Assembly: GCA_045807765.1 (NCBI GenBank)
Contig: JBJMGU010000120.1
Span: forward strand, 778 to 64,777
DNA: 64,000 nucleotides
Source of the DNA: Blastocatellia bacterium
GTDB lineage: Bacteria > Acidobacteriota > Blastocatellia > UBA7656
Reading direction: 5' to 3'
The translations under genes and the position numbers were made by a program. Shown here one piece after another: positions 7,934 to 50,649 of this stretch (the stretch's first letter is position 1; each line of letters opens with the position of its first letter). The notes below the pieces were generated by a model. That model ran no database searches. It worked only from the letters and a program-made list of their open reading frames with translations, and was not told the DNA's origin.

Positions 7934-9001
7934 TTACGGGACGGATGTGATCTTGCCGAACAGCCCATGCTCTTCGTCGTCGATGCCGGCGGTGAAATAG
8001 AGCGTGGTTGTCGGCCCGGCGCTGCCCCCATTGCCGAAGCCCAGAGCCCAGAGCCCATCAATGGTTATCGGCTGGTTGCTGGTATCGAGCAGAAAGCCGT
8101 GGAAGTTTCCGGTCTTCAGATCGAAGACGGCAATCTGGCCGCTGCCGAACTGGCCGATCAGCACTTGGTTGCTGACGCCGAACGCACCGCCCGGCCCGCC
8201 GACGGCGGGGCCGCCGCTGAAACCCGGCGGTGGGATCACCACTCCCCACGGCGCATTCATCCACATGCCGGATTGCAGGCGCAGCAGCAGATTACCAGCC
8301 GAGTCAAAGGCATCAACATAGCCGAACCCCGGCCCGGCGACCTCGTCCTCTTTGTCGGCGTCTTGTTTGGCGTAGGCGACAAAGAGCATGCCGCCCGCCG
8401 CTTGCACATTGAAGGGGGCGAACCCTGCCGGCAGCGCCGGGTCGGAAAAGGCGCCCACCGGCAACGTCACCGGCATATAGTTTCTATCAAAGACTTCGAC
8501 CATGCCCGCGTAAAAATTGGCGGCATAAAGGTAGTTGGCGCCATTGATTTGCGCGATGGTGATCCCCTTATAGATCGCTGAACCGTTGCGGTTCACCCGC
8601 AAAACGGCGCTGGTGCCACTGCTCCAACCGGAGATCGTTCCCTCTTCGGTGTCAAAGATGAAGCGGTCGCCAAAGAAGTCTGAACCGCCGTTGAAGACGA
8701 CGCCGGTGGGCGCAGAAGGCGGCGTCCCTCCGGGCGGCACAGGGATCGTCACGACCAGCGGCACAATGCCGCCGGAGCCGTTATACAGCGTCGAAACACC
8801 GGTGCCATTATCGGCTACCCACCACGGGCTATTTGAGCTGCGGGCCAGTCCCCAGGGATTAACCAGATTCGGGTCGGTCGTCGGAGCAAGTCCCGGCACG
8901 TCCGACACCAGGTTGGTCTGTTGATAATGCTGCGCCGCGGCGCTGGTGGAAAGACAGAGGGTCATTCCAACAGTCAGCGCAAAGGTGATGACGGTCATCA
9001 T
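7934..9001 (-). CDS. Secreted beta-propeller-like protein (resembles the TIGR03118 uncharacterised family)
   Basis: The probable start MMTVITFALTVGMTLCLSTSAAAQ is a signal peptide. YQQTNLVSDVPGLAPTTDPNLVNPWGLA...WWVADNGTGVSTLY is the pattern I associate with TIGR03118. Confidence 0.6.
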   Translation of the reverse strand: MMTVITFALTVGMTLCLSTSAAAQHYQQTNLVSDVPGLAPTTDPNLVNPWGLARSSNSPWWVADNGTGVSTLYNGSGGIVPLVVTIPVPPGGTPPSAPTGVVFNGGSDFFGDRFIFDTEEGTISGWSSGTSAVLRVNRNGSAIYKGITIAQINGANYLYAANFYAGMVEVFDRNYMPVTLPVGAFSDPALPAGFAPFNVQAAGGMLFVAYAKQDADKEDEVAGPGFGYVDAFDSAGNLLLRLQSGMWMNAPWGVVIPPPGFSGGPAVGGPGGAFGVSNQVLIGQFGSGQIAVFDLKTGNFHGFLLDTSNQPITIDGLWALGFGNGGSAGPTTTLYFTAGIDDEEHGLFGKITSVP

Positions 9002-31680: not shown

Positions 31681-33179
31681 TTCGCCTCCTGTACGGCCTG
31701 CGGCGCGGTCGAGGGCCGCCCGACGAGCGACCCGACCACCAGGCCAAGCGCTGCCAATCCGAAGGCCGCAAAGCCGGTGACGTTCTCGCTCCAGTGGAGA
31801 AAAAAGAACGGGATGATCGCGCCCGTTGCGCCTGCAATCATCGCCAGATAACCGCCCGTGGTGTTGGCGCGTCGCCAGTAGAGCCCGCCGACTACACAGA
31901 CGAAAGCGCCCGCCAGAAAGATCGTCCCCGTGATGTTCAGGTAGAGATAGACCGCGCCGGGCGGCGTGTAGTACAAACCCCAGAACATCAGGAATAGGCT
32001 GACGAAGAGATTGCTGATGCGGTTGACGAGAATCTGGGCGCGCGAATCGAGCGGCGGCTTCTTGAGCACGCGGCGCAGCGGCAGAATGATGTCTTGCGAA
32101 ATGACCGCGCTCCAGCCCAGCAGGTAAGAGCTATTTACAGACATGGTCGCCGCCAGCATGCCGGCAACCACCAGTCCTTTTACTCCCGGACGCAGAATGG
32201 TCGCCAGCATCGCCGGCATCGCATCAATCGGCGCGAGCGTCTGACCATCAACCACCGGCGCCGGCACGCCGTGATCGGTTGCGCCGGTGCCGAACATCGT
32301 CAACGCGGCAATGCCCCAGAGCATCGGCAGCATGCCGCGACCGAGGAAGATAAAACCTGTCCAGGTCATTACTCGCTTCGAGGTTTCGGCGCTGCGCGTC
32401 GCAAACATGCGCATGGCGGTCGTCTGCCAGCAGGTATGCACTGAAAACCAGAGCAGCACTTGCCAGATCAAAAAGGTCAGGCCGAATTTCGGATTGGCAA
32501 TCGGGTTGAAGCCGGCCTCGCCCATTGTCGCCGTCACCTTATCAACAATGTTGCCCCAGCCGGCGTGAGCGACGGCATAGATCGTCACCAGGATGGTCGC
32601 GACCGACAGCAGTACGTATTGAACGAAGTCCGTGATGACGACGGAAACCATGCCGCCCAGCACCGTGTAGAGCAATTCGAGCAGCAGGATGACGGTCATC
32701 GCCGCCACGAGGTAGCGCGAAGGGATGCCGCTCACGATGGTCAGGAACTCGCCTTCGATCTTGAGGAAGACGCCCATGTTGAGGATGCCGCCGAGGGCTA
32801 CGAGCACTCCGGTCACCAGGCGCAGCCCGCGACTATACTTGACCTCGAAGAACTCCGGCACGGTCATCAGGCGCAGCTCGCGCAGGCGGCTGATGACGAA
32901 GCCCGTGCGCCCGACGAAGATCATCACCAGGCCCGATATCAGCGCCGCCGCAAACGCCGCGAAGCCGTATTTGTAGCCCAGCTCGCCATTGTACATGTAG
33001 GTGATTGTGCCGATCTCTGTGGCCGCCAGCGTCGCGATGCCGACGTACAGGCCCAGCTCGCGGCCCGCCACCAGGAAGTGCGAGACGTTGCCGACGAAAC
33101 GTTTGCCGATCAAGCCAACGGCGACCGAAACGATCAGATAGACGATGACGATGAGCCAGTCAATCCCTGTAAACCCCAT
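31677..33179 (-). CDS. Sodium:solute symporter family (SSF) transporter
   Basis: 500 aa with about 13 TM helices. N-terminus MGFTGIDWLIVIVYLIVSVAVGLIGKRF... is typical of SSF proteins. Confidence 0.8.
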   Translation of the reverse strand: MGFTGIDWLIVIVYLIVSVAVGLIGKRFVGNVSHFLVAGRELGLYVGIATLAATEIGTITYMYNGELGYKYGFAAFAAALISGLVMIFVGRTGFVISRLRELRLMTVPEFFEVKYSRGLRLVTGVLVALGGILNMGVFLKIEGEFLTIVSGIPSRYLVAAMTVILLLELLYTVLGGMVSVVITDFVQYVLLSVATILVTIYAVAHAGWGNIVDKVTATMGEAGFNPIANPKFGLTFLIWQVLLWFSVHTCWQTTAMRMFATRSAETSKRVMTWTGFIFLGRGMLPMLWGIAALTMFGTGATDHGVPAPVVDGQTLAPIDAMPAMLATILRPGVKGLVVAGMLAATMSVNSSYLLGWSAVISQDIILPLRRVLKKPPLDSRAQILVNRISNLFVSLFLMFWGLYYTPPGAVYLYLNITGTIFLAGAFVCVVGGLYWRRANTTGGYLAMIAGATGAIIPFFFLHWSENVTGFAAFGLAALGLVVGSLVGRPSTAPQAVQEAK

Positions 33180-44431: not shown

Positions 44432-44986
44432 CTACGCCGTTTTATCGGCGCGGGCACTTTCCAGGAAGAGGTACTTTCTCCACTCCGGCCTTGATGTCGA
44501 CTCATGGCAGAGGATCGAACGGTCAATACCGTAAGTCAACGCCGCCGGGTTCTTCAGCAGCGGCATGCGCGACTCTTCCGGCGTGCGGTCGCCTTTTCGC
44601 TGATTGCACGCAAAGCATGAAGCCACCAGGTTATCGGCAGATGTCGAGCCGCCGCGAGACGCCGGCAGGATGTGATCGATAGTCAACTCGAACATGCCGC
44701 CGCGCTTGCCGCAGTACTGGCAGCAGAAATGGTCGCGCGCCAGAATCCGCGCGCGCTTGCTTGATGATTTGCGCTGCCTGCCGCGCACGTCGATGTATTC
44801 GATCAAACGAATGACTGACGGCTGCGGAAATTCAAAGCGCAGTGAGCGTAGCATGCGGTCGCCGTCTGCCTCGACCATCTCGGCTGACTCCTTCCAGATC
44901 AGACGCACCGCTCGCGGCACAGCAATCGTCCCCAGCGGTTCGTACGAAGCGTTCAACAGCAATACTTTTCGCGTCAGCAGATTCAT
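44432..44986 (-). CDS. HNH endonuclease (McrA/COG1403-like)
   Basis: CQYCGKRGG...LTIDHILPASRGGSTSADNLVASCFACNQRKGDR (HNH with two CxxC pairs). The ATG lies 7 nt after the encoded CCA of the last array tRNA. Confidence 0.85.
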   Translation of the reverse strand: MNLLTRKVLLLNASYEPLGTIAVPRAVRLIWKESAEMVEADGDRMLRSLRFEFPQPSVIRLIEYIDVRGRQRKSSSKRARILARDHFCCQYCGKRGGMFELTIDHILPASRGGSTSADNLVASCFACNQRKGDRTPEESRMPLLKNPAALTYGIDRSILCHESTSRPEWRKYLFLESARADKTA

Positions 44987-44993
44987 AACGTCC

Positions 44994-45070
44994 TGGAGCC
45001 GATGGAGAGAATTGAACTCACACTCTGCGACTTACGAGGCCGCCGCTTTATCCGTTTAAGCTACATCGGC
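44994..45070 (-). tRNA. tRNA-Thr(CGU), CCA encoded
   Basis: Hand fold: acceptor GCCGATG/CATCGGC, anticodon loop CTCGTAA, T-loop TTCAATT, 3' TCCA. Confidence 0.8.
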
Positions 45071-45073
45071 AAA

Positions 45074-45147
45074 TGCCCGATGGAGGAATCGAACCCCCGC
45101 ATGGCCACTTTGTAAGAGTGGTGCTTTCCCGTCTTAGCTAATCGGGC
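45074..45147 (-). tRNA. tRNA-Val(UAC)
   Basis: Acceptor GCCCGAT/ATCGGGC, anticodon loop CTTACAA, T arm GGGGG-TTCGATT-CCTCC. Confidence 0.8.
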
Positions 45148-45152
45148 AAAAG

Positions 45153-45225
45153 AGCGAGCGACGGGATTCGAACCCGCTCGGTCCAGCTTGGAAGGCTGGC
45201 GCTCATCCACTTGAGCTTCACTCGC
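45153..45225 (-). tRNA. tRNA-Gly(UCC)
   Basis: Acceptor GCGAGTG/CGCTCGC, U73, anticodon loop CTTCCAA, T-loop TTCGAAT. Position 8 is A. Confidence 0.8.
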
Positions 45226-45228
45226 CTG

Positions 45229-45301
45229 AGCCGATGACGGGCCTCGAACCCGCAGCCTGGGCATTACAAGTGCCCTGCACGTCCGCTTGTGCTTCATCGG
45301 C
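45229..45301 (-). tRNA. tRNA-Thr(UGU)
   Basis: Acceptor GCCGATG/CATCGGC (identical to Thr-CGU and Ile-GAU), anticodon loop CTTGTAA. Position 8 is A. Confidence 0.8.
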
Positions 45302-45304
45302 GAA

Positions 45305-45378
45305 TGGGGATAGGAAGAGTCGAACTCCCGGCCTCACCTTTCGGAGAGGTGCGCTCTCTCCGTCTGAGCTATATCCCC
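45305..45378 (-). tRNA. tRNA-Arg(CCG)
   Basis: Acceptor GGGGATA/TATCCCC, anticodon stem CACCT/AGGTG, loop CTCCGAA, T-loop TTCGACT. Confidence 0.8.
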
Positions 45379-45383
45379 GGAAC

Positions 45384-45455
45384 TTAGAATTGCAGCGGGC
45401 ACTTCAAGCAATACCGCTTGCCGTGCGCCTTACAGACTTTCTTATAACGATGCAT
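45384..45455 (-). CDS. 23-aa basic Cys/His microprotein embedded in the tRNA array
   Basis: MHRYKKVCKAHGKRYCLKCPLQF* (not in track). GGAGG at 45465-45469 lies 9 nt upstream of the ATG. It fills the only long (93-nt) spacer, between tRNA-Gln(UUG) and tRNA-Arg(CCG). Confidence 0.5.
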   Translation of the reverse strand: MHRYKKVCKAHGKRYCLKCPLQF

Positions 45456-45471
45456 GGCGATCTACCTCCGA

Positions 45472-45545
45472 CTGCGGGGGCGGGCAACGATTCCGCAACC
45501 TCCACTTTCAAAGAGTGGCGCTCTGCCTGCTTGAGCTACCCCGCA
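45472..45545 (-). tRNA. tRNA-Gln(UUG), irregular T arm
   Basis: Acceptor TGCGGGG/CCCCGCA (U1-A72) with G73, as in bacterial tRNA-Gln. Anticodon loop CTTTGAA. The T arm GCGGA-ATCGTTG-CCCGC lacks the canonical TTCGA loop and the G53-C61 pair. Confidence 0.65.
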
Positions 45546-45549
45546 TCAG

Positions 45550-45622
45550 TGGTTGGGGTGAGGGTCGAACTCACCGCCTCTGGTGCTTCAAACCAGCGCT
45601 CTTCCTGATGAGCTTCCCAACC
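45550..45622 (-). tRNA. tRNA-Phe(GAA)
   Basis: Acceptor GGTTGGG/CCCAACC, anticodon loop TTGAAGC (G37), T arm GTGAG-TTCGACC-CTCAC. Position 8 is A. Confidence 0.75.
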
Positions 45623-45626
45623 ATAA

Positions 45627-45699
45627 AGCTGCCGGCGAGACTCGAACTGGCGCGGATAGGTTCAGGAAACCTGCGCCTCATCCGCTCGGCCACGGCAGC
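45627..45699 (-). tRNA. tRNA-Arg(CCU)
   Basis: Acceptor GCTGCCG/CGGCAGC, anticodon loop TTCCTGA. D arm TGGCCGAGCGGATGAGGC resembles class II D arms. One T-stem mismatch. Confidence 0.7.
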
Positions 45700-45706
45700 A
45701 AAAAAA

Positions 45707-45784
45707 TGGTGGAGAGTATGGGGCTCGAACCCATCCATCGAGTTTGCAGGACTCGCATGCCGCCAACAACACCTTGCCGACCGA
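45707..45784 (-). pseudogene. Degenerate/chimeric tRNA-like unit (Ala-UGC-like 3' half with CCA)
   Basis: Canonical 3' part: T arm ATGGG-TTCGAGC-CCCAT, then ACTCTCC-A-CCA. Anticodon arm CGAGT-CCTGCAA-ACTCG. The 5' end (GGTCGGCAAGGTG...) cannot pair with the 3' acceptor strand. Confidence 0.5.
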
Positions 45785-45857
45785 TGGGCCGCGTGGGAGT
45801 CGAACCCACTACCACCCGATTAAAAGTCGGGTACTCATCCTGATGAGCTTGCGGCCC
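45785..45857 (-). tRNA. tRNA-Lys(UUU)
   Basis: Acceptor GGGCCGC/GCGGCCC, anticodon stem CCCGA/TCGGG, loop CTTTTAA, T arm GTGGG-TTCGACT-CCCAC. Position 8 is A. Confidence 0.8.
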
Positions 45858-45858
45858 G

Positions 45859-45949
45859 TACTCCCGCCGGGACTCGAACCCGGATCACGCACCAATCTAG
45901 TGCTTGCAGGGTATAAGCCTGCTGTTTTATCCAATTAAACTACGGGAGC
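45859..45949 (-). tRNA. Class II (long variable arm) tRNA with anticodon UAU
   Basis: Acceptor GCTCCCG/CGGGAGT, A73. Anticodon stem GCAGG/CCTGC with loop CTTATAC. 22-nt variable arm AAGCACTAGATTGGTGCGTGAT (stem GCAC/GTGC). T arm CCGGG-TTCGAGT-CCCGG. Confidence 0.7.
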
Positions 45950-45953
45950 GCGA

Positions 45954-46025
45954 TGAGCCCGACAGGAATCGAACCTGCTTTTCCGGTTTAAGAGACCGGC
46001 ACTTCGCCAGCAAAGCTTCAGGCCC
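45954..46025 (-). tRNA. tRNA-Lys(CUU)
   Basis: Acceptor GGGCCTG/CGGGCTC (two G-U pairs), anticodon stem CCGGT/ACCGG, loop CTCTTAA. Position 8 is A. Confidence 0.75.
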
Positions 46026-46028
46026 AAA

Positions 46029-46103
46029 TGCTCCCGGCAGGACTCGAACCCGCATCGCCAACCTTAGAAGGGTTGTGCCTTAATCCAGTTAGACCACAGG
46101 AGC
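46029..46103 (-). tRNA. tRNA-Arg(UCU)
   Basis: Acceptor GCTCCTG/CGGGAGC, anticodon stem CAACC/GGTTG, loop CTTCTAA, T-loop TTCGAGT. Confidence 0.8.
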
Positions 46104-46108
46104 AAAAG

Positions 46109-46182
46109 CGAGGTGTAGGGGAGTCGAACCCCTCTCTTCACGATAGACAATCGTGCGCCTCAAGCCGCTCGGCCAACACCTC
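46109..46182 (-). tRNA. tRNA-Asp(GUC)
   Basis: Acceptor GAGGTGT/ACACCTC, G73, anticodon stem CACGA/TCGTG, loop TTGTCTA (pyrimidine at 37). D arm TGGCCGAGCGGCTTGAGGC. Confidence 0.7.
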
Positions 46183-46186
46183 GAAA

Positions 46187-46259
46187 TGCCGATGTCAGGA
46201 TTCGAACCTGCATCGCGCGGTTATCAACCGCGTGCTCTGCCTGCTTGAGCTACATCGGC
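46187..46259 (-). tRNA. tRNA-Ile(GAU)
   Basis: Acceptor GCCGATG/CATCGGC, anticodon stem CGCGG/CCGCG, loop TTGATAA. D arm GCTCAAGCAGGCAGAGC is identical to that of Gln(UUG). Confidence 0.75.
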
Positions 46260-46260
46260 A

Positions 46261-46337
46261 TGGCTCCGGGACAAGGATTTGAACCTTGAATCTCCTGAGT
46301 CAGAGTCAGGCGCGATAGCCAGTTTCGCCCTCCCGGA
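46261..46337 (-). tRNA. tRNA-Gln(CUG), CCA encoded
   Basis: Acceptor TCCGGGA/TCCCGGA (U1-A72), G73-CCA, anticodon loop CTCTGAC, T arm CAAGG-TTCAAAT-CCTTG. Position 8 is G. Confidence 0.75.
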
Positions 46338-46342
46338 ACACG

Positions 46343-46417
46343 TACGGGCGGTTGGAGTCGAACCAACGATCTCCTGATCCACAATCAGGCGCTCTTGACC
46401 ATCTGAGCTACGCCCGC
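46343..46417 (-). tRNA. tRNA-His(GUG), without encoded G-1:C73
   Basis: Acceptor GCGGGCG/CGCCCGT, anticodon loop TTGTGGA, T arm GTTGG-TTCGACT-CCAAC. Position 73 is A and the base 5' of G1 is U. Confidence 0.75.
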
Positions 46418-46422
46418 ACAAG

Positions 46423-46495
46423 CAGGGATGGCGAGACTCGAACTCGCTAAAACTGGTTTGAAAAACCAGGCGCTCGGCCCTTTGCATTCATCCCC
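46423..46495 (-). tRNA. tRNA-Glu(UUC)
   Basis: Acceptor GGGGATG/CATCCCT, G73, anticodon stem CTGGT/ACCAG, loop TTTTCAA. The D loop contains AGGGCC as in Glu tRNAs. Position 8 is A. Confidence 0.75.
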
Positions 46496-46515
46496 ATTAA
46501 AGCCAAAGATCACCA

Positions 46516-46589
46516 TGCGCGAGGGGAGAGTCGAACTCCCAAGACTTCGGGTTTAAGCCGAAGATGTCTGCCGCTTGCATCACTCGCGC
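46516..46589 (-). tRNA. tRNA with Leu anticodon UAA but class I (short variable loop) architecture
   Basis: Acceptor GCGCGAG/CTCGCGC, A73, anticodon stem TTCGG/CCGAA, loop CTTAAAC, 5-nt variable loop. D arm TGATGCAAGCGGCAGACATC. Confidence 0.7.
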
Positions 46590-46594
46590 AAGAT

Positions 46595-46670
46595 TGGTGG
46601 CAGGGCCGGAGTCGCACCGGTGATTTCCTGGTTATGAGCCAGGCGAGCCTGATTCCTGCTCCACCCCTGC
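46595..46670 (-). tRNA. tRNA-Met(CAU)-like, CCA encoded, irregular T arm/acceptor register
   Basis: D arm GAGC/GCTC, anticodon stem CCTGG/CCAGG, loop CTCATAA. T-loop TGCGACT (G at 55). The acceptor pairs only as GCAGGG/CCCTGC, consistent with a 1-nt loss. Confidence 0.55.
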
Positions 46671-46675
46671 ATCAG

Positions 46676-46748
46676 AGCGCGCGGTCAGACTCGAACTGAC
46701 ACGTTAGCGGTTTTGCAGACCGCCGCCTTCCCTTTTGGCTACGCGCGC
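46676..46748 (-). tRNA. tRNA-Cys(GCA)
   Basis: Acceptor GCGCGCG/CGCGCGC, U73, anticodon stem GCGGT/ACCGC, loop CTGCAAA, T arm GTCAG-TTCGAGT-CTGAC. Confidence 0.8.
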
Positions 46749-46754
46749 GAAAAG

Positions 46755-46825
46755 AGCTTCGTATGGGACTCGAACCCATGTCTGCGACCTGGCAAGCCGC
46801 CGTCTTTCCTCTGGACCAACGAAGC
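46755..46825 (-). tRNA. tRNA-Gly(GCC)
   Basis: Acceptor GCTTCGT/ACGAAGC, U73, anticodon loop TTGCCAG, T arm ATGGG-TTCGAGT-CCCAT. Confidence 0.8.
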
Positions 46826-46829
46826 CGTA

Positions 46830-46903
46830 TGGGAGCAAAGAGATTCGAACTCTTATGACCGGCATTTTGAGCGCCGGATGTCTACCACTTGCATCATGCT
46901 CCC
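46830..46903 (-). tRNA. tRNA with Leu anticodon CAA, class I architecture
   Basis: Acceptor GGGAGCA/TGCTCCC, A73, anticodon loop CTCAAAA, 5-nt variable loop. D arm TGATGCAAGTGGTAGACATC. Confidence 0.7.
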
Positions 46904-46907
46904 GCAG

Positions 46908-46981
46908 TGCGGACGGAGAGATTCGAACTCTCAAAACGTCGCCTCTGAAACGACGATGTCTGCCGCTTGCATCACGTCCGC
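46908..46981 (-). tRNA. tRNA with Leu anticodon CAG, class I architecture
   Basis: Acceptor GCGGACG/CGTCCGC, A73, anticodon loop TTCAGAG, 5-nt variable loop. D arm TGATGCAAGCGGCAGACATC. Confidence 0.7.
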
Positions 46982-47077
46982 AGCAGTGTGGGCGACCGGA
47001 GTCGAACCCACAACGGATTGGTTACCGCTACTTGTTTTCAAGACAAGCTGACATTCCAGCATCTACTCTTCCACGAA
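46982..47077 (-). pseudogene. Degenerate class II tRNA-Ser(UGA)-like unit
   Basis: Good anticodon arm CTTGT-CTTGAAA-ACAAG and variable arm AGCGG/CCGTT. The T region reads GTGGG-TTCGACT-CCGGTCG-CCCAC (7 extra nt). The 5' GGAAGAG has no complementary 3' strand. Confidence 0.45.
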
Positions 47078-47161
47078 CGGAGATGAGAGGAGTCGAACCT
47101 CCACGGGATATTTCACCCGGCGGCTTAGCAAACCGCTGCCATACCTTTAGGCGACATCTCC
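47078..47161 (-). tRNA. tRNA-Ser(GCU), class II
   Basis: Acceptor GGAGATG/CATCTCC, G73, anticodon loop TTGCTAA, long variable arm CGGGTGAAATATCCCGT, T arm GGAGG-TTCGACT-CCTCT. Confidence 0.8.
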
Positions 47162-47167
47162 ACAAGG

Positions 47168-47237
47168 CAGGAGTGACAGGAATCGAACCTGTTCTGCTGG
47201 TTTTGGAGACCAGTTGGCTGCCTTAGCTCTCACTCCC
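47168..47237 (-). tRNA. tRNA-Trp(CCA), irregular D region
   Basis: Acceptor GGGAGTG/CACTCCT (G1-U72), G73, anticodon stem CTGGT/ACCAG, loop CTCCAAA, T arm ACAGG-TTCGATT-CCTGT. The D stem is only 3 bp (GCT/AGC) with extra linker nucleotides. Confidence 0.65.
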
Positions 47238-47242
47238 AAGCA

Positions 47243-47328
47243 TGCCGGCGGGAGGACTCGAACCTCCGAAGTCCACAAAGGGACGCCTGTTCTACAGACA
47301 GGAGCGATTGCCGCTACGCGACGCCGGC
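47243..47328 (-). tRNA. tRNA-Tyr(GUA), class II (first gene of array)
   Basis: Acceptor GCCGGCG/CGCCGGC, A73, anticodon stem CCTGT/ACAGG, loop CTGTAGA, long variable arm with GTCC/GGAC stem, T arm GGAGG-TTCGAGT-CCTCC. Confidence 0.8.
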
Positions 47329-47880
47329 GTACGGACAACTTATTGTCAAAGAGCGCAGCATGGCGGCTTCAGCCATCGGCCATCGCTCCTTGATCTCTAG
47401 CTTTTGTGGATTGCTTGGGATTTCGGGAGCGAGAGGACGCTCCCGCTACGATTAGTTCAGACTACCCAAATCTATAAAGCGCCCTTGCAGGACGACCGTC
47501 GATTCGAGCATCCGATTAGACGTATAGACACACGTCGGCTGGTTCGCCGTGCGTGGGTGCCATTTTGTGGATAACCGTCTAATCATTTGAACTACCTTAA
47601 CCTCGTAGCCAGTTTGCCGGAAGCTAAATCCGGCACCGCTCATTGTAGGCCATACGGCAGACCAGATCAATAAGTTCTTCTCACTTCACTTTTTTTTCGT
47701 TTGCGACTGCCAATCCCAGCGCGATGCCGATCAACGCCATGCGAATCCCCTGTTGCACTACCAGAGTCCGACCCGTCGGCTCAACTTTGCAAGCCGGTCG
47801 GACGCGTAGTAAATTGTTGTCGTCTTGCGGCCCCGAAAGTTGACCGTCTTTTAAATTCATTTGTGAAGGAAAAACGCGTT

Positions 47881-48912
47881 ATGAATCTCTGCCACCAACA
47901 CCGTCTTTTCATACTTACGGTTGCGCTATTCATCTTTTCATTCCCCGCCCTTGCCGCGCAGACCAAGAGCAAGCCGCCCGCGAACACCAATGCCGCCAGA
48001 TCACAGTCGAAGCCCGCTGCAAAGCCGAAGCGCGAAACGGCGGAAGCGAAGCGCGAGGCGGCTGAGGCAAAAGCCAAAGCGGCGCGCGCCGGCGTAACCC
48101 TGTTCGTCGTGGCGCAAGACCGCGGCGGCAGCCACATCGAGCCGCTCGTCGGCATCATCGAAGGGCGTTACCTTGAGCCGCCCTCTGCCGAGTCTGAACA
48201 ATTCTCGGCCTTCGCGGCGCGCTACTATCACGTCGGCCAGAGATACCGCCTGCTGTTCGGTGGCGGCGATGCCGGCACGGCAACCGTCAGGGCCAAGCCT
48301 GATAAAGACAGCGACTGCGCTCGCGCCCTGGCCAGCGTCGAGTTGCAGACCGCCGCACGCATCAACGGCCTGGTGATGGGGCTGGCGACAAACTCAGAAA
48401 CGCTGGGCCGGCGCGCCGCAACGCGCCGTTTCCCTACCCCTGCCGAGCGCACGGCGGCCAATGATCTGGCCGGGCGCATCTTTCGCCAGAAGGGCGCTGC
48501 CGCCGCCGCCGTGCAAGACATGAAGACGATTAACATGACGGCGGCCGACCTGAACGGCGACGGCAAGTGGGAGATCATTGCCAGCTTCATCGTCCGCACG
48601 CAATCGCGCAATGAAGCCGTCCATCATCTCTTTCTCATTGCCGCGCCTGACGCCGATGGCTTTGACATAGACCTGATGCGCTATGCCCGCACGGCGAAAG
48701 GCGACCTGCCCGAAGGCGCCAGCCTCGACGATGTGCAGGAAGCGTTATTGAGCGAAGTGCTGGTTGATCACGTTGATCTGGATAGCGATAAGATGAGCGA
48801 AGTCGTCACCATGACGACCAACTTCGAGGGCGCGACCTACAAGATTTATCACAAGCAGAAGAATCGCTGGGCGAACATCTACGAATACTACAGCTACCGC
48901 TGTGCCTATTGA
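47881..48912 (+). CDS. Secreted hypothetical protein with Lys/Ala-rich linker and FG-GAP-like motif
   Basis: The probable start MNLCHQHRLFILTVALFIFSFPALAAQ is a signal peptide. AKPKRETAEAKREAAEAKAKAA low-complexity segment. DLNGDGKWEIIA motif. Confidence 0.5.
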   Translation: MNLCHQHRLFILTVALFIFSFPALAAQTKSKPPANTNAARSQSKPAAKPKRETAEAKREAAEAKAKAARAGVTLFVVAQDRGGSHIEPLVGIIEGRYLEPPSAESEQFSAFAARYYHVGQRYRLLFGGGDAGTATVRAKPDKDSDCARALASVELQTAARINGLVMGLATNSETLGRRAATRRFPTPAERTAANDLAGRIFRQKGAAAAAVQDMKTINMTAADLNGDGKWEIIASFIVRTQSRNEAVHHLFLIAAPDADGFDIDLMRYARTAKGDLPEGASLDDVQEALLSEVLVDHVDLDSDKMSEVVTMTTNFEGATYKIYHKQKNRWANIYEYYSYRCAY

Positions 48913-48954: not shown

Positions 48955-50649
48955 TCAAATATCAAAGCCGCCGAGGCGTCCGCCGCTCTTGGGCTGCGGC
49001 TTGACCAGCACGGCGCGCTCCTCGTCGCGGCGTGCGCGGCTCTGCTCGCTGTGCCAGCGCGCCCACTCCAGCGGCGCATCGATGGTTTCGCCGCCGTGGC
49101 GCGTCAGCCGCTTGCGCACCTGACACATCACCGGCGTATTGATCGCCACGCCTGACACGATCAACTGCCCCTTGGTCAGCGCCGGCAATTCATCAAGCAT
49201 GCGTCGGCCTGCGCCTTCGACCGTTTTAGCAATGGTGTCCTGATCTATTGGGTTGACGATGCGCATGATGAACTGCGTCATGCATTGCGACAGCACATCG
49301 GCGTCGAGCTTGCCCGGTCGCTGAGTAATCAGGCCGACGCCGACGCCGAATTTGCGCCCTTCGGAAAGAATCTGCTTTAACACATTCGTAGACACGACCG
49401 TTTGTCCGGCGGGCGCGAAGCGGTGCGCTTCTTCGAGCAGAACGAACATCGGGAACGGCAGGTATCGCTCGTTGGTTGGGTCGGTGACTTCGCCCTTATG
49501 CGTCGCCATGCGGCCCAGGATCGCCCGCCGCAAAAGCGTCGCGACGATTACCTGCTGCTCGTTCTGCTCGATGTCTACGAGTTGCAGCACGGTACATTGA
49601 CCGGGCTGAAACAGCTCGGTGAGCAGGTTATGTTCGTGGTCGGAAAAAATCTGATGCTTGCTGTAGCCGCGAAAGCGCCCTTCGAGCCGCCACGTCAGCC
49701 CGTCAATCGTGCTGATGTTGCCGGCGCGGTTGCCTTCGTCGTCGCCATAACGCTGCTCTTCGACGGCGTCGAGCAAGTCCTGATAGATGTAGTGGCCGTG
49801 CTTGCCGGCGCGCTCGCGCATGGTGCGAAAGGCGTTGCCGAGAAAGTGGCGCATCTTGTCGGTCATCTCCGGCAGCAGGTAGCAGATGTCGGCGAACTCC
49901 AAGGTGTCGAATCTGACTTTCACCTTTTCGGGCCGCAGAATCTTAACCTCCGGCGTATAGCCGTCGGCGGTGAATTGAGTGCGAAACTTTTCGCCTTTGA
50001 TCTCCTGTAACGTATCATACTCGCCGTGCGGGTCAACGATCAGCACCGCCGAGCGGTTCTGTGGGCGCATCAGCTCTTCGATCAGCACAGACGCCGTGTA
50101 GCTTTTGCCCGCGCCGGTCGAAGCCAGCACCGCCAGATGTGTCGATACGACATCCTTCACAGACAGGACCACCGGGACGTCGCCGGCTTCGCGGGTCAGC
50201 AGACTGCCGACGTGCGCCGCGCCACGCTCGCCCGGCTGCTTCGGCGACAACACGCGCGCCAACAATTCAGAGGGCGCAAGGTAGACAGGTTGGCCGGGCA
50301 TTGGCGGGATGCGCGGGTTGACGAAGTCTTTCAGCTCGTCGTCATAGTAACCAATCAACGAGACAACGATCTCGAACAGCTCGGCGCTGTCGTCGTCAAA
50401 GCCGATCATCGCGGCGACCGCCGCCGGCGGCGTTTCGGGATCGGCAAGAAAGCTGTCCGGCAGCGAGCGCGCCAGCCGTCGCTCGGTGACATTGCCAAGA
50501 ATGCGGCGCTCGCTGCGGGCCGCATCGCGCACGTAGTAGACGAACTCGCCGACGCGCGTGTGGTCGTTGTCTGTGGTGATGAAGACAAACTCGCTGGGCT
50601 TTTCGCCCGGCCCCTTGACTGTGCCTACCAGTGTGTCGGACATTTCCAT
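48955..50649 (-). CDS. HerA-like (DUF87) hexameric ATPase/helicase
   Basis: N-terminal HAS-barrel-like GTVKG...EFVFITTDNDHTRVGEFVYYV. Walker A VLASTGAGKSYT. Walker B MFVLLEEAHRFAP. Confidence 0.75.
   Translation of the reverse strand: MEMSDTLVGTVKGPGEKPSEFVFITTDNDHTRVGEFVYYVRDAARSERRILGNVTERRLARSLPDSFLADPETPPAAVAAMIGFDDDSAELFEIVVSLIGYYDDELKDFVNPRIPPMPGQPVYLAPSELLARVLSPKQPGERGAAHVGSLLTREAGDVPVVLSVKDVVSTHLAVLASTGAGKSYTASVLIEELMRPQNRSAVLIVDPHGEYDTLQEIKGEKFRTQFTADGYTPEVKILRPEKVKVRFDTLEFADICYLLPEMTDKMRHFLGNAFRTMRERAGKHGHYIYQDLLDAVEEQRYGDDEGNRAGNISTIDGLTWRLEGRFRGYSKHQIFSDHEHNLLTELFQPGQCTVLQLVDIEQNEQQVIVATLLRRAILGRMATHKGEVTDPTNERYLPFPMFVLLEEAHRFAPAGQTVVSTNVLKQILSEGRKFGVGVGLITQRPGKLDADVLSQCMTQFIMRIVNPIDQDTIAKTVEGAGRRMLDELPALTKGQLIVSGVAINTPVMCQVRKRLTRHGGETIDAPLEWARWHSEQSRARRDEERAVLVKPQPKSGGRLGGFDI

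Follow-up and report, generated by a model that had tools for sequence, protein, structure and literature searches.

The UAU tRNA gene

We analyzed a tRNA gene with the anticodon UAU and a long variable arm in a 64,000-nucleotide stretch of DNA from a Blastocatellia bacterium, hereafter called the window. The gene is 91 nt long, lies on the minus strand at 45859..45949, and has no encoded CCA. ARAGORN called it as tRNA-Ile(tat), 92 nt, at 45858-45949 on the minus strand. The Rfam tRNA model RF00005 matched 45859-45949 on the same strand over its full length (model positions 1-71) with 61.2 bits against a gathering score of 29 (E = 5.8e-12; 1.7e-13 when run on a short stretch), which places the gene among tRNAs at the Rfam threshold. 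The minimum free energy fold is a cloverleaf with a variable-arm hairpin (-33.9 kcal/mol, z = -2.84). In the Rfam alignment, UAU occupies positions 34-36 and the variable region contains an insertion of 19-20 nt; the first-pass annotation of this DNA, made from its letters, had allowed that a covariance model might place another anticodon here, and none was placed. The window gene is an intact tRNA with the anticodon UAU.

The 5' half of the molecule reads GCUCCCG-UA-GUUU-AAUUGGAUA-AAAC-A-GCAGG-CUUAUAC-CCUGC, and the 3' half AA-GCAC-UAGAUUG-GUGC-GUGAU-CCGGG-UUCGAGU-CCCGG-CGGGAGU-A. The 7-bp acceptor stem GCUCCCG/CGGGAGU contains a G1-U72 pair and is followed by the discriminator A73, and the core has U8, A9 and a D stem of 4 bp (GUUU/AAAC). 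The anticodon arm GCAGG-CUUAUAC-CCUGC (45906..45922, minus strand), seen in the sequence and in the Rfam alignment, has UAU at 45913-45915, and position 38 of its loop is C, not A. The variable region AAGCACUAGAUUGGUGCGUGAU (45884..45905, minus strand) is 22 nt long and consists of AA, a hairpin and GUGAU; these final five nucleotides resemble a class I variable loop, with a G46-like and a Y48-like base. The hairpin (45889..45903, minus strand) has the stem GCAC/GUGC, apparent from the sequence and from covariation in a 50-sequence alignment, and displays a 7-nt loop, UAGAUUG (45893-45899, minus strand), whose conserved GAU lies at 45895-45897. The T arm CCGGG-UUCGAGU-CCCGG (45867..45883, minus strand) was likewise found in the sequence and the Rfam alignment. 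The tRNA falls under the structural definition of class II, since its 22-nt variable region exceeds about 10 nt and folds into a stem-loop whose stem has 4 bp. Direct reading of the sequence and the fold bear out what the first-pass annotation had described: a 7-bp acceptor with G1-U72 and A73, a perfect anticodon stem GCAGG/CCTGC with the loop CTTATAC, a 22-nt variable arm with a 4-bp stem, a canonical T arm, and overall the shape of a class II tRNA together with UAU, an unusual combination in bacteria. That annotation was silent on the minus strand, on the array of about 27 tRNA genes around the gene (44994-47328), and on the conserved GAU of the arm loop. In a search of the window for an extra copy, the CCAGATTAG motif with at most one mismatch was no more frequent than chance.

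A conserved family in phages and bacteria

The gene is one of a large, conserved family whose members move with phage tRNA clusters and bacterial tRNA arrays. Scans for the family used a pattern in which the anticodon arm and the T loop are joined by a long spacer (GGCTTATACCC N17-37 GGTTCGANTCC); a hit had to agree exactly with a single anticodon-arm sequence and a single T-loop pattern, and the counts are lower bounds, not a census. The long-spacer pattern was found on 98 viral contigs, where about one was estimated by chance, compared with 12 viral contigs for the short-spacer version; the IMG/VR contigs in this viral set may contain some bacterial fragments. At least 119 genome contigs, at one genome per species, carried the long-spacer pattern. 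Among the genome matches listed, most were Acidobacteriota (Acidobacteriaceae, Pyrinomonadaceae, Terriglobales, Blastocatellia), and others came from Melainabacteria, Chloroflexota, Planctomycetota and alpha-proteobacteria, Ruegeria and Pelagibius among them. Of these matches, those closest to the window tRNA were in metagenome-assembled genomes (MAGs) of Acidobacteriota.

Several members are carried by cultured phages. The member is annotated plainly as 'tRNA-Ile' in Levilactobacillus phage ENFP1 and Lactobacillus phage 3-521 and as 'tRNA-Ile(tat)' in Sinorhizobium phage Phosso, and it is present and unannotated in Lactobacillus phages LpeD and Lpa804. The cultured cyanophages S-SRM01 and S-SKS1 of Synechococcus also carry an unannotated UAU tRNA with a GAU arm on an unusual body (4-nt D loop, 7-bp anticodon stem), at about 32944-33035 of MW015081.1 (locus L348) and about 178510-178600 of HQ633071.1 (locus L349), respectively. 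ARAGORN mis-calls long-armed members as intron-containing Gly(ccc), Arg(ccg) or Val(tac) genes (L001, L035, L044, L051, L069, L074, L076, L078-L081); we rejected the intron reading as Gly(ccc) or Arg(ccg), since those relatives conserve both the UAU stem-loop and the arm. For annotation, then, genes of this family are labelled plain 'tRNA-Ile', missed (S-SRM01, S-SKS1), or mis-called as intron-containing Gly or Arg genes. The suggestion that a class II tRNA-Ile would be unprecedented did not survive these hundreds of copies in phages and bacterial tRNA arrays, some of them annotated 'tRNA-Ile' in GenBank phage records.

Family statistics were taken from 188 unique members with the canonical 7-bp acceptor and 5-bp T stem (7/5). 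This set includes members picked on the loop motif, and the loop statistics of sets not picked in this way agree with it. The window tRNA shows the defining order of the family, namely the UAU loop, a hairpin with a 7-nt loop Y-N-G-A-U/C-N-R, about 5 nt, and the T arm. Conserved positions include A73 (184/188), U8 (177/188), A9 (168/188) and the anticodon loop CUUAUAC (154/188), and CCA is encoded in 126/188. Pair 1-72 is G-U in 72 members, G-C in 46, C-G in 43 and A-U in 22, and the rest of the acceptor stem covaries freely across the family. The variable region begins with 1-6 unpaired nucleotides, continues with the hairpin, and ends with 5 (at times 6) nucleotides, NNGNY, which are like a class I variable loop; G stands third from the end in 129/188, and 178/188 end in U or C. 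The hairpin stem covaries and ranges from 3 to about 10 bp, mostly 4.

Covariation was measured in an alignment of the window tRNA with 49 relatives. The variable-arm stem was paired in 100% of cells, and all four of its pairs had changed on both sides. For the structure as a whole, 98.2% of cells were paired versus 66.6% in shuffles, and the covariation score was 0.828 versus 0.204 when shuffled and 0.12-0.17 when partners were slid by 1-3 columns. The two Acidobacteriota array orthologues L230 and L263 have the acceptor stem of the window tRNA or nearly so, and L230 has its T arm as well. Compared with the window copy, both carry compensatory D-stem changes (GCUC/GAGC versus GUUU/AAAC in the window), and L230 carries a compensatory arm-stem change (GCGC/GCGC versus GCAC/GUGC in the window). 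Such changes among orthologues argue for continuing selection.

The arm loop and its coupling with the UAU anticodon

The 7-nt arm loop has the consensus Y-(A>G>>U)-G-A-(U>>C)-N-(A>G). GAU occupies positions 3-5 in 173/188 unique members and GAC does so in 10/188, and in genome copies that were not selected on the loop, position 3 is G in 95/96 and position 4 is A in 94/96. When set against the anticodon loop of the major tRNA-Ile(GAU), C-U-G-A-U-A-A, the arm loop agrees at positions 32, 34, 35, 36 and 38, and several members have exactly CUGAUAA or CUGAUUA. Position 7 is mostly A in the family and G in the window copy, and the true anticodon loop has C38. Judged by its bases, the arm loop is closer to the Ile anticodon loop than the family's own decoding loop is, because the decoding loop has C38 and A38 is a determinant for isoleucyl-tRNA synthetase (IleRS) in Escherichia coli. 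Because position 6 varies while position 3 stays G, the conserved triplet is GAU, not AUN.

Two other explanations of the loop were tried and rejected. Pairing of the arm loop with the T loop (GAU-AUC, GAC-GUC) found no support, as by eye there was no covariation with T-loop position 59 in the GAC-type members. The idea that the loop mimics a codon (AUN) for the UAU anticodon of the same tRNA was discarded on account of the variable position 6 and the invariant G at position 3.

We further scanned viral contigs for the arm motif joined to the T arm (CCAGATTAG N6-16 GGTTCGANTCC), leaving the anticodon unconstrained. This gave at least 120 viral loci, of which 115 were new. A UAU stem-loop lay directly upstream of the arm motif in 110 of these 115; in the other five the motif fell within an ordinary anticodon arm, a number close to the chance estimate. 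Of the long-armed tRNAs with other anticodons that occur in the window and in the first 98 viral loci, none carried the GAU arm, and a few held a stray AGAU. The module of UAU anticodon and GAU arm sits on at least three tRNA bodies: the canonical 7/5 body of the window tRNA; a cyanophage and rhizobiophage body with 1 nt between the acceptor and a 4-bp/4-nt D arm and with a 7-bp anticodon stem; and an irregular type, with the same CCAGAUUAG loop, that is kept across about 50 contigs of Acidobacteriaceae. The GAU-displaying hairpin is the sole feature that is family-specific, conserved and coupled with UAU.

A 'swapped' tRNA was observed at 7964-8018 on the plus strand of IMGVR_UViG_3300002052_000476 (L219), with a perfect arm of the tRNA-Ile(GAU) type, CCACU-CUGAUAA-GGUGG, in the anticodon position and a UAU hairpin, GUUGG-CUUAUAC-CCGAC, in the variable-arm position. 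A dedicated scan of the viral contigs found no second tRNA with a GAU anticodon and a UAU arm, and we rejected the swapped form as the general one, L219 being the sole case among viral contigs. Three viral loci (L006, and L062 and L073 on contigs of 308 kb and 501 kb) hold long-armed Gly, Glu, Pro, Asn, Asp, Cys and Met tRNAs; extra arms in phage tRNAs are therefore not limited to Ile(UAU).

The tRNA array and its neighbourhood

The UAU tRNA is one of about 27 tRNA genes arrayed on the minus strand (44994..47328), for which ARAGORN gave 26 tRNAs and Rfam added one. The added gene is a tRNA-Glu(UUC) with G73 at 46423-46495 (minus strand; 42 bits with the Rfam tRNA model). A degenerate tRNA-like stretch at 45710-45778 (minus strand) scored 21 bits, below threshold. 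Seven T come after its terminal CCA, and the stretch may represent an array member in decay or a terminator inside the array. The three tRNA-Leu genes, UAA, CAA and CAG (46516-46589, 46830-46903 and 46907-46981, minus strand), are 74-76 nt long with a 5-nt variable loop and are class I-shaped, as are those of all related arrays examined; type I tRNA-Leu has a precedent in Streptomyces coelicolor (PMC6614811). At the tRNA-Ser(UGA) gene (46986-47074, minus strand) there was a weak match to the Rfam tRNA-Sec model (30.4 bits, gathering score 47), and for this stretch no match was listed with the general tRNA model. No promoter or terminator for the array rose above chance in the window.

Related arrays occur in many MAGs of Acidobacteriota and other groups. 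They start with Tyr-Trp-Ser-Ser, as the window array does, and in them the Leu tRNAs are 73-80 nt long (with rare exceptions) and Ile(UAU) 89-96 nt. A Melainabacteria MAG (L238) and a Chloroflexota MAG (L250) have the same 21-tRNA array in the same order and with near-identical lengths; the cause is either a horizontal transfer of recent date or an error in binning.

Directly downstream of the array is an open reading frame (ORF) for an HNH endonuclease of 184 aa (44432..44986, minus strand; Pfam HNH_5, HNH, HNH_4), homologues of which neighbour the UAU tRNA in 27 loci, namely 16 viral and 10 genomic loci and the window. Upstream of the array are a 403-aa ORF without a family match (47701-48912, plus strand) and a HerA-type helicase (48955-50649, minus strand), which matched anti-phage HerA models below their cut-offs only. 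Other neighbours are NamZ/beta-lactamase, an SSF symporter and a BadF-type ATPase beside the array, and an outer-membrane protein with CarboxypepD_reg and OMP_b-brl_4. These neighbours, together with the Acidobacteriota MAGs in which the nearest relatives of the tRNA lie, point to a bacterial chromosome, probably of Acidobacteriota. We found no close DNA relative of the window among GenBank phages.

To look for partner proteins, we clustered every ORF of 80 aa or more from 346 loci. The recurrent neighbours were restricted to the HNH endonuclease, Ro60/TROVE-vWA, RtcB and ordinary phage genes, and no synthetase or modification enzyme recurred beside the tRNA in these clusters. Ro60/TROVE-vWA was present in 16 genome and 14 viral loci and an RtcB-like ligase in 14 loci (e.g. 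L316 and L341, and the viral L225), which suggests that these proteins and the arrays form tRNA back-up or RNA-repair islands. In our view, the window gene is a single unit within an array of about 27 tRNA genes that has spread horizontally and sits in an Acidobacteriota-like chromosome; arrays of this kind probably serve the cell as a reserve or replacement set of tRNAs.

Parent scaffold and amino acid identity

The first-pass annotation had proposed that the gene is a Leu, Ser or Tyr scaffold with a changed anticodon. We removed the arm and aligned the remaining body globally against about 3000 tRNAs from the collected loci. No Leu, Ser, Tyr or Ile parent was found among them; the nearest bodies were class I Arg(UCU) and Val(UAC), with Leu, Ser and Tyr never near the top, and an anticodon-shifted class II scaffold is excluded for this reason. 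Nor is the tRNA class II by descent, as its D stem has 4 bp with U13-A22 instead of 3 bp.

Bacterial tRNA-Leu is identified by A73 and the tertiary core (A15-U48 and the placement of G18G19), and its anticodon is not read. The window tRNA has the Leu-type features A73, A15 and U48, the latter two being LeuRS-friendly in E. coli, and its D arm is not Leu-like. It has A73, not the G73 of tRNA-Ser, as do nearly all members of the family, and its anticodon UAU lacks the G34 and U35 of tRNA-Tyr; the former excludes Ser identity and the latter Tyr identity. For bacterial IleRS, the identity set comprises the anticodon, t6A37, A38, A73, C4-G69, U12-A23 and C29-G41 (PMC9976931). The window tRNA has A35, U36, A37 and A73 from this set, along with C4-G69 and U12-A23; it has U34 instead of G34 or lysidine-34, C38 instead of A38, and A29-U41 instead of C29-G41. 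G-A-U is carried by its arm loop. Across the family C4-G69 occurs in 51%, U12-A23 in 77% and C29-G41 in 48%.

Codon alignments were used to see which amino acid AUA stands for. In 74 protein clusters from the collected loci, AUA codons of the tRNA-carrying viral loci aligned with I at 0.31, L at 0.17 and V at 0.15 (794 weighted instances). For AUU and AUC of the same loci the values were I 0.42-0.45, L 0.12-0.14 and V 0.17-0.19 (2547 and 1058 weighted instances), and for Leu codons L 0.51-0.56, I 0.08-0.12 and V 0.06-0.07 (386-1329 weighted instances each). The lower share of Ile at AUA is as expected of a rare codon at less conserved positions. The genomic loci gave 62 weighted AUA codons only. 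These data indicate that AUA means Ile in the tRNA-carrying phages, not Leu, and the recoding or mistranslation first suggested for this gene does not agree with AUA aligning like AUU and AUC. Of the first-pass options, the class II Ile tRNA is the one that the evidence favours.

Possible function of the variable arm

AUA is the hardest codon for bacteria, and the usual route to it is the essential enzyme TilS, which converts C34 to lysidine. The few known UAU tRNAs rely on a specially adapted IleRS and ribosome. E. coli IleRS charges tRNA-Ile(UAU) inefficiently, the enzyme of Mycoplasma mobile does so via one adapted residue, and on E. coli ribosomes an unmodified UAU anticodon does not tell AUA from AUG (PMC3575796). 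We consider it about evenly balanced that the family is a TilS-independent, AUA-reading tRNA-Ile whose variable arm is a surrogate recognition element, most plausibly for IleRS. Mobile elements would thereby carry an AUA-decoding tRNA-Ile with no need of lysidine or TilS. An ordinary bacterial IleRS, recognising G34 or lysidine-34, would charge UAU poorly, and a mobile UAU tRNA in unadapted hosts would therefore need help; the GAU-bearing arm could provide it as a surrogate or additional element, making the tRNA usable in any host. It is less likely that the arm would be read by some other protein that recognises the tRNA-Ile anticodon loop. More tentatively, the arm might be a transplanted anticodon arm, its GAU loop being read by the anticodon-binding module of IleRS, or either arm being shown to a different partner; this would allow Ile charging despite a decoding anticodon, UAU, that IleRS cannot recognise. 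The features A73, A37 and U12-A23, at the family frequencies given above, are compatible with Ile.

Several points weigh against a surrogate element read by IleRS. Class I synthetases reach the tRNA on the face that lies opposite its variable region, and the tip of the arm is far from the anticodon; because of this geometry, one IleRS gripping both the CCA end and the arm loop in its normal mode is hard to picture. A stem of 3 to about 10 bp speaks against a contact at fixed distance. Loop position 2 is A or G, hardly ever the U33 of a genuine anticodon loop, position 6 is not fixed as A37, and GAC, a Val-type triplet, replaces GAU in about 5% of members. A73, A15 and U48 together would also suit bacterial LeuRS, so that Leu charging is possible from the sequence. 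The codon test also mirrors AUA decoding by the host and is compatible with low-level mistranslation. AUA accounts for about 18% of the Ile codons of these phage ORFs, compared with 9.5% for long window ORFs; given this low share and no encoded CCA on the window copy, demand in the host is uncertain.

The main alternative to surrogate reading by IleRS is a role in modification. The arm would be a determinant or anti-determinant for modification of U34 or position 37, or for another step that bars the reading of AUG, and IleRS would charge the tRNA via A35, U36, A37 and A73. We think this unlikely. UAU tRNAs face a decoding-fidelity problem (AUA/AUG) besides that of charging (PMC3575796), and the strict coupling of arm and UAU fits the one problem as well as the other. 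The arm also points away from a class I synthetase and would be free for another protein. However, no conserved candidate gene adjoins the tRNA across loci, the recurrent ones being HNH, Ro60/TROVE and RtcB, and a modification role leaves unexplained why the loop copies the Ile anticodon loop in particular. We know of no modification enzyme that reads a GAU loop in a variable arm.

Somewhat less probable still is a mainly non-translational RNA whose GAU loop is a decoy for a toxin or defence nuclease aimed at the tRNA-Ile anticodon loop. The frequent presence of Ro60/TROVE-vWA and RtcB RNA-repair genes at related loci, pointing to tRNA-damage conflicts, is in its favour, and a decoy or regulatory role was suggested for allo-tRNA(UAU) (PMC5389517). 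However, the UAU loop, A73, acceptor stem, T arm and, in most members, an encoded CCA are kept as in working tRNAs, the genes stand among ordinary tRNAs in lytic-phage clusters, and a pure decoy would have no need of a conserved UAU anticodon. The amber-suppressor assay of allo-tRNA demanded serine at the reporter site (PMC5389517); an Ile-charged allo-tRNA would therefore score as inactive, which also tells against a decoy.

It is improbable, too, that the chromosomal copy of the window is a silent passenger of a transferred array, unexpressed or unneeded whatever the family does in phages. There is no convincing promoter, the one weak sigma-70-like site (47670-47642, minus strand) being at chance level; the array contains a degenerate tRNA-like remnant; arm loops vary more in genomic arrays (CGGAUCA, UGGACUA) than in phages; and AUA is a minority codon in the window. 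However, all helices of the window copy are intact and its loop keeps GAU, and the compensatory D-stem and arm-stem changes of L230 and L263 indicate continuing selection. Least probable is a class II Leu, Tyr or Ser tRNA mutated to UAU and charged by LeuRS, TyrRS or SerRS with the wrong amino acid for AUA: it would account for the long arm and A73 and has a parallel in the Leu-charged (in vitro) class II nematode nev-tRNA-Ile(UAU) (PMC3333845, PMC4300185), but the body is unlike Leu, Ser and Tyr with its 4-bp D stem, the G73 needed by SerRS and the G34 and U35 used by TyrRS are missing, the arm loop is conserved as no Leu, Ser or Tyr arm requires, the Leu tRNAs of the same arrays have no long arm, AUA aligns with Ile, and a mistranslator is unlikely in so widespread a family.

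Taken together, our results describe a widespread structural variant of tRNA-Ile that has a conserved replica of the Ile anticodon loop in its variable arm. A full-text literature search, with the lactic-acid-bacteria tRNA-Ile(UAU) papers PubMed 29092074 and 35122395 and the review PMC4615378 outside its scope, turned up no earlier account of a bacterial or phage class II tRNA-Ile(UAU), nor of a variable-arm loop with GAU. If the arm indeed serves charging, it would be a third, portable solution to AUA decoding with a built-in second 'anticodon' arm, and would give phages and mobile arrays a host-independent and TilS-independent AUA decoder. An identity element could then move out of the anticodon loop, and this would be the first natural tRNA to separate an 'identity anticodon' from a 'decoding anticodon', and a template for engineered orthogonal tRNAs charged independently of the anticodon. 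Such a tRNA would also have a bearing on the ways in which phages evade the codon bias of their hosts and defences aimed at tRNAs.

Comparison with known systems

Among known tRNAs with UAU, the irregular Acidobacteriaceae type described above may be the allo-tRNA(UAU) group of Mukai et al. With the allo-tRNA(UAU) of Acidobacteria our family shares UAU, a long arm, occurrence in Acidobacteriota and mobile or toxin-antitoxin contexts (PMC5389517). In contrast, allo-tRNAs split the acceptor and T stems as 8/4 or 9/3 and have a presumed Ser identity with G73, whereas the 12-bp branch of the window tRNA is divided into an acceptor stem of 7 bp and a T stem of 5 bp, with A73; the text consulted makes no mention of a GAU arm loop (PMC5389517). 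The nematode nev-tRNA-Ile(UAU) has in common with the family its class II shape and UAU (PMC3333845, PMC4300185). The nematode tRNA is a eukaryotic one, its body resembles tRNA-Leu and it accepts Leu in vitro, whereas our family combines a class I-like body with a conserved arm loop, and the codon evidence favours Ile.

The bacterial class II tRNAs (Leu, Ser, Tyr, Sec) likewise have a variable region of more than 10 nt with a stem-loop. Their D stem has 3 bp and their arm loop is unconserved, in contrast to the 4-bp D stem and conserved arm loop found here, and their arm acts through shape, or not at all in the case of LeuRS. Like other bacterial and phage tRNA arrays, those carrying this tRNA have tightly packed genes on one strand that cover most amino acids, an HNH endonuclease alongside, and a gene order that recurs in distant taxa; the window array type departs from the usual ones in that the structural classes are swapped, with Leu short and Ile(UAU) long.

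The nearest functional counterpart is the tRNA-Ile(UAU) 'Ile3' of M. mobile, Bifidobacterium, Neorickettsia and some lactobacilli, which also has an encoded UAU, A73 and A37. 'Ile3' reads AUA without lysidine or TilS, and the same is proposed for the family here. 'Ile3' tRNAs are, as far as is known, class I and have a variable loop that is short, whereas the family here is long-armed with a GAU loop. 'Ile3' works through an adapted host IleRS, with Arg865 in M. mobile (PMC3575796), whereas the family here resides on mobile elements that meet many hosts.

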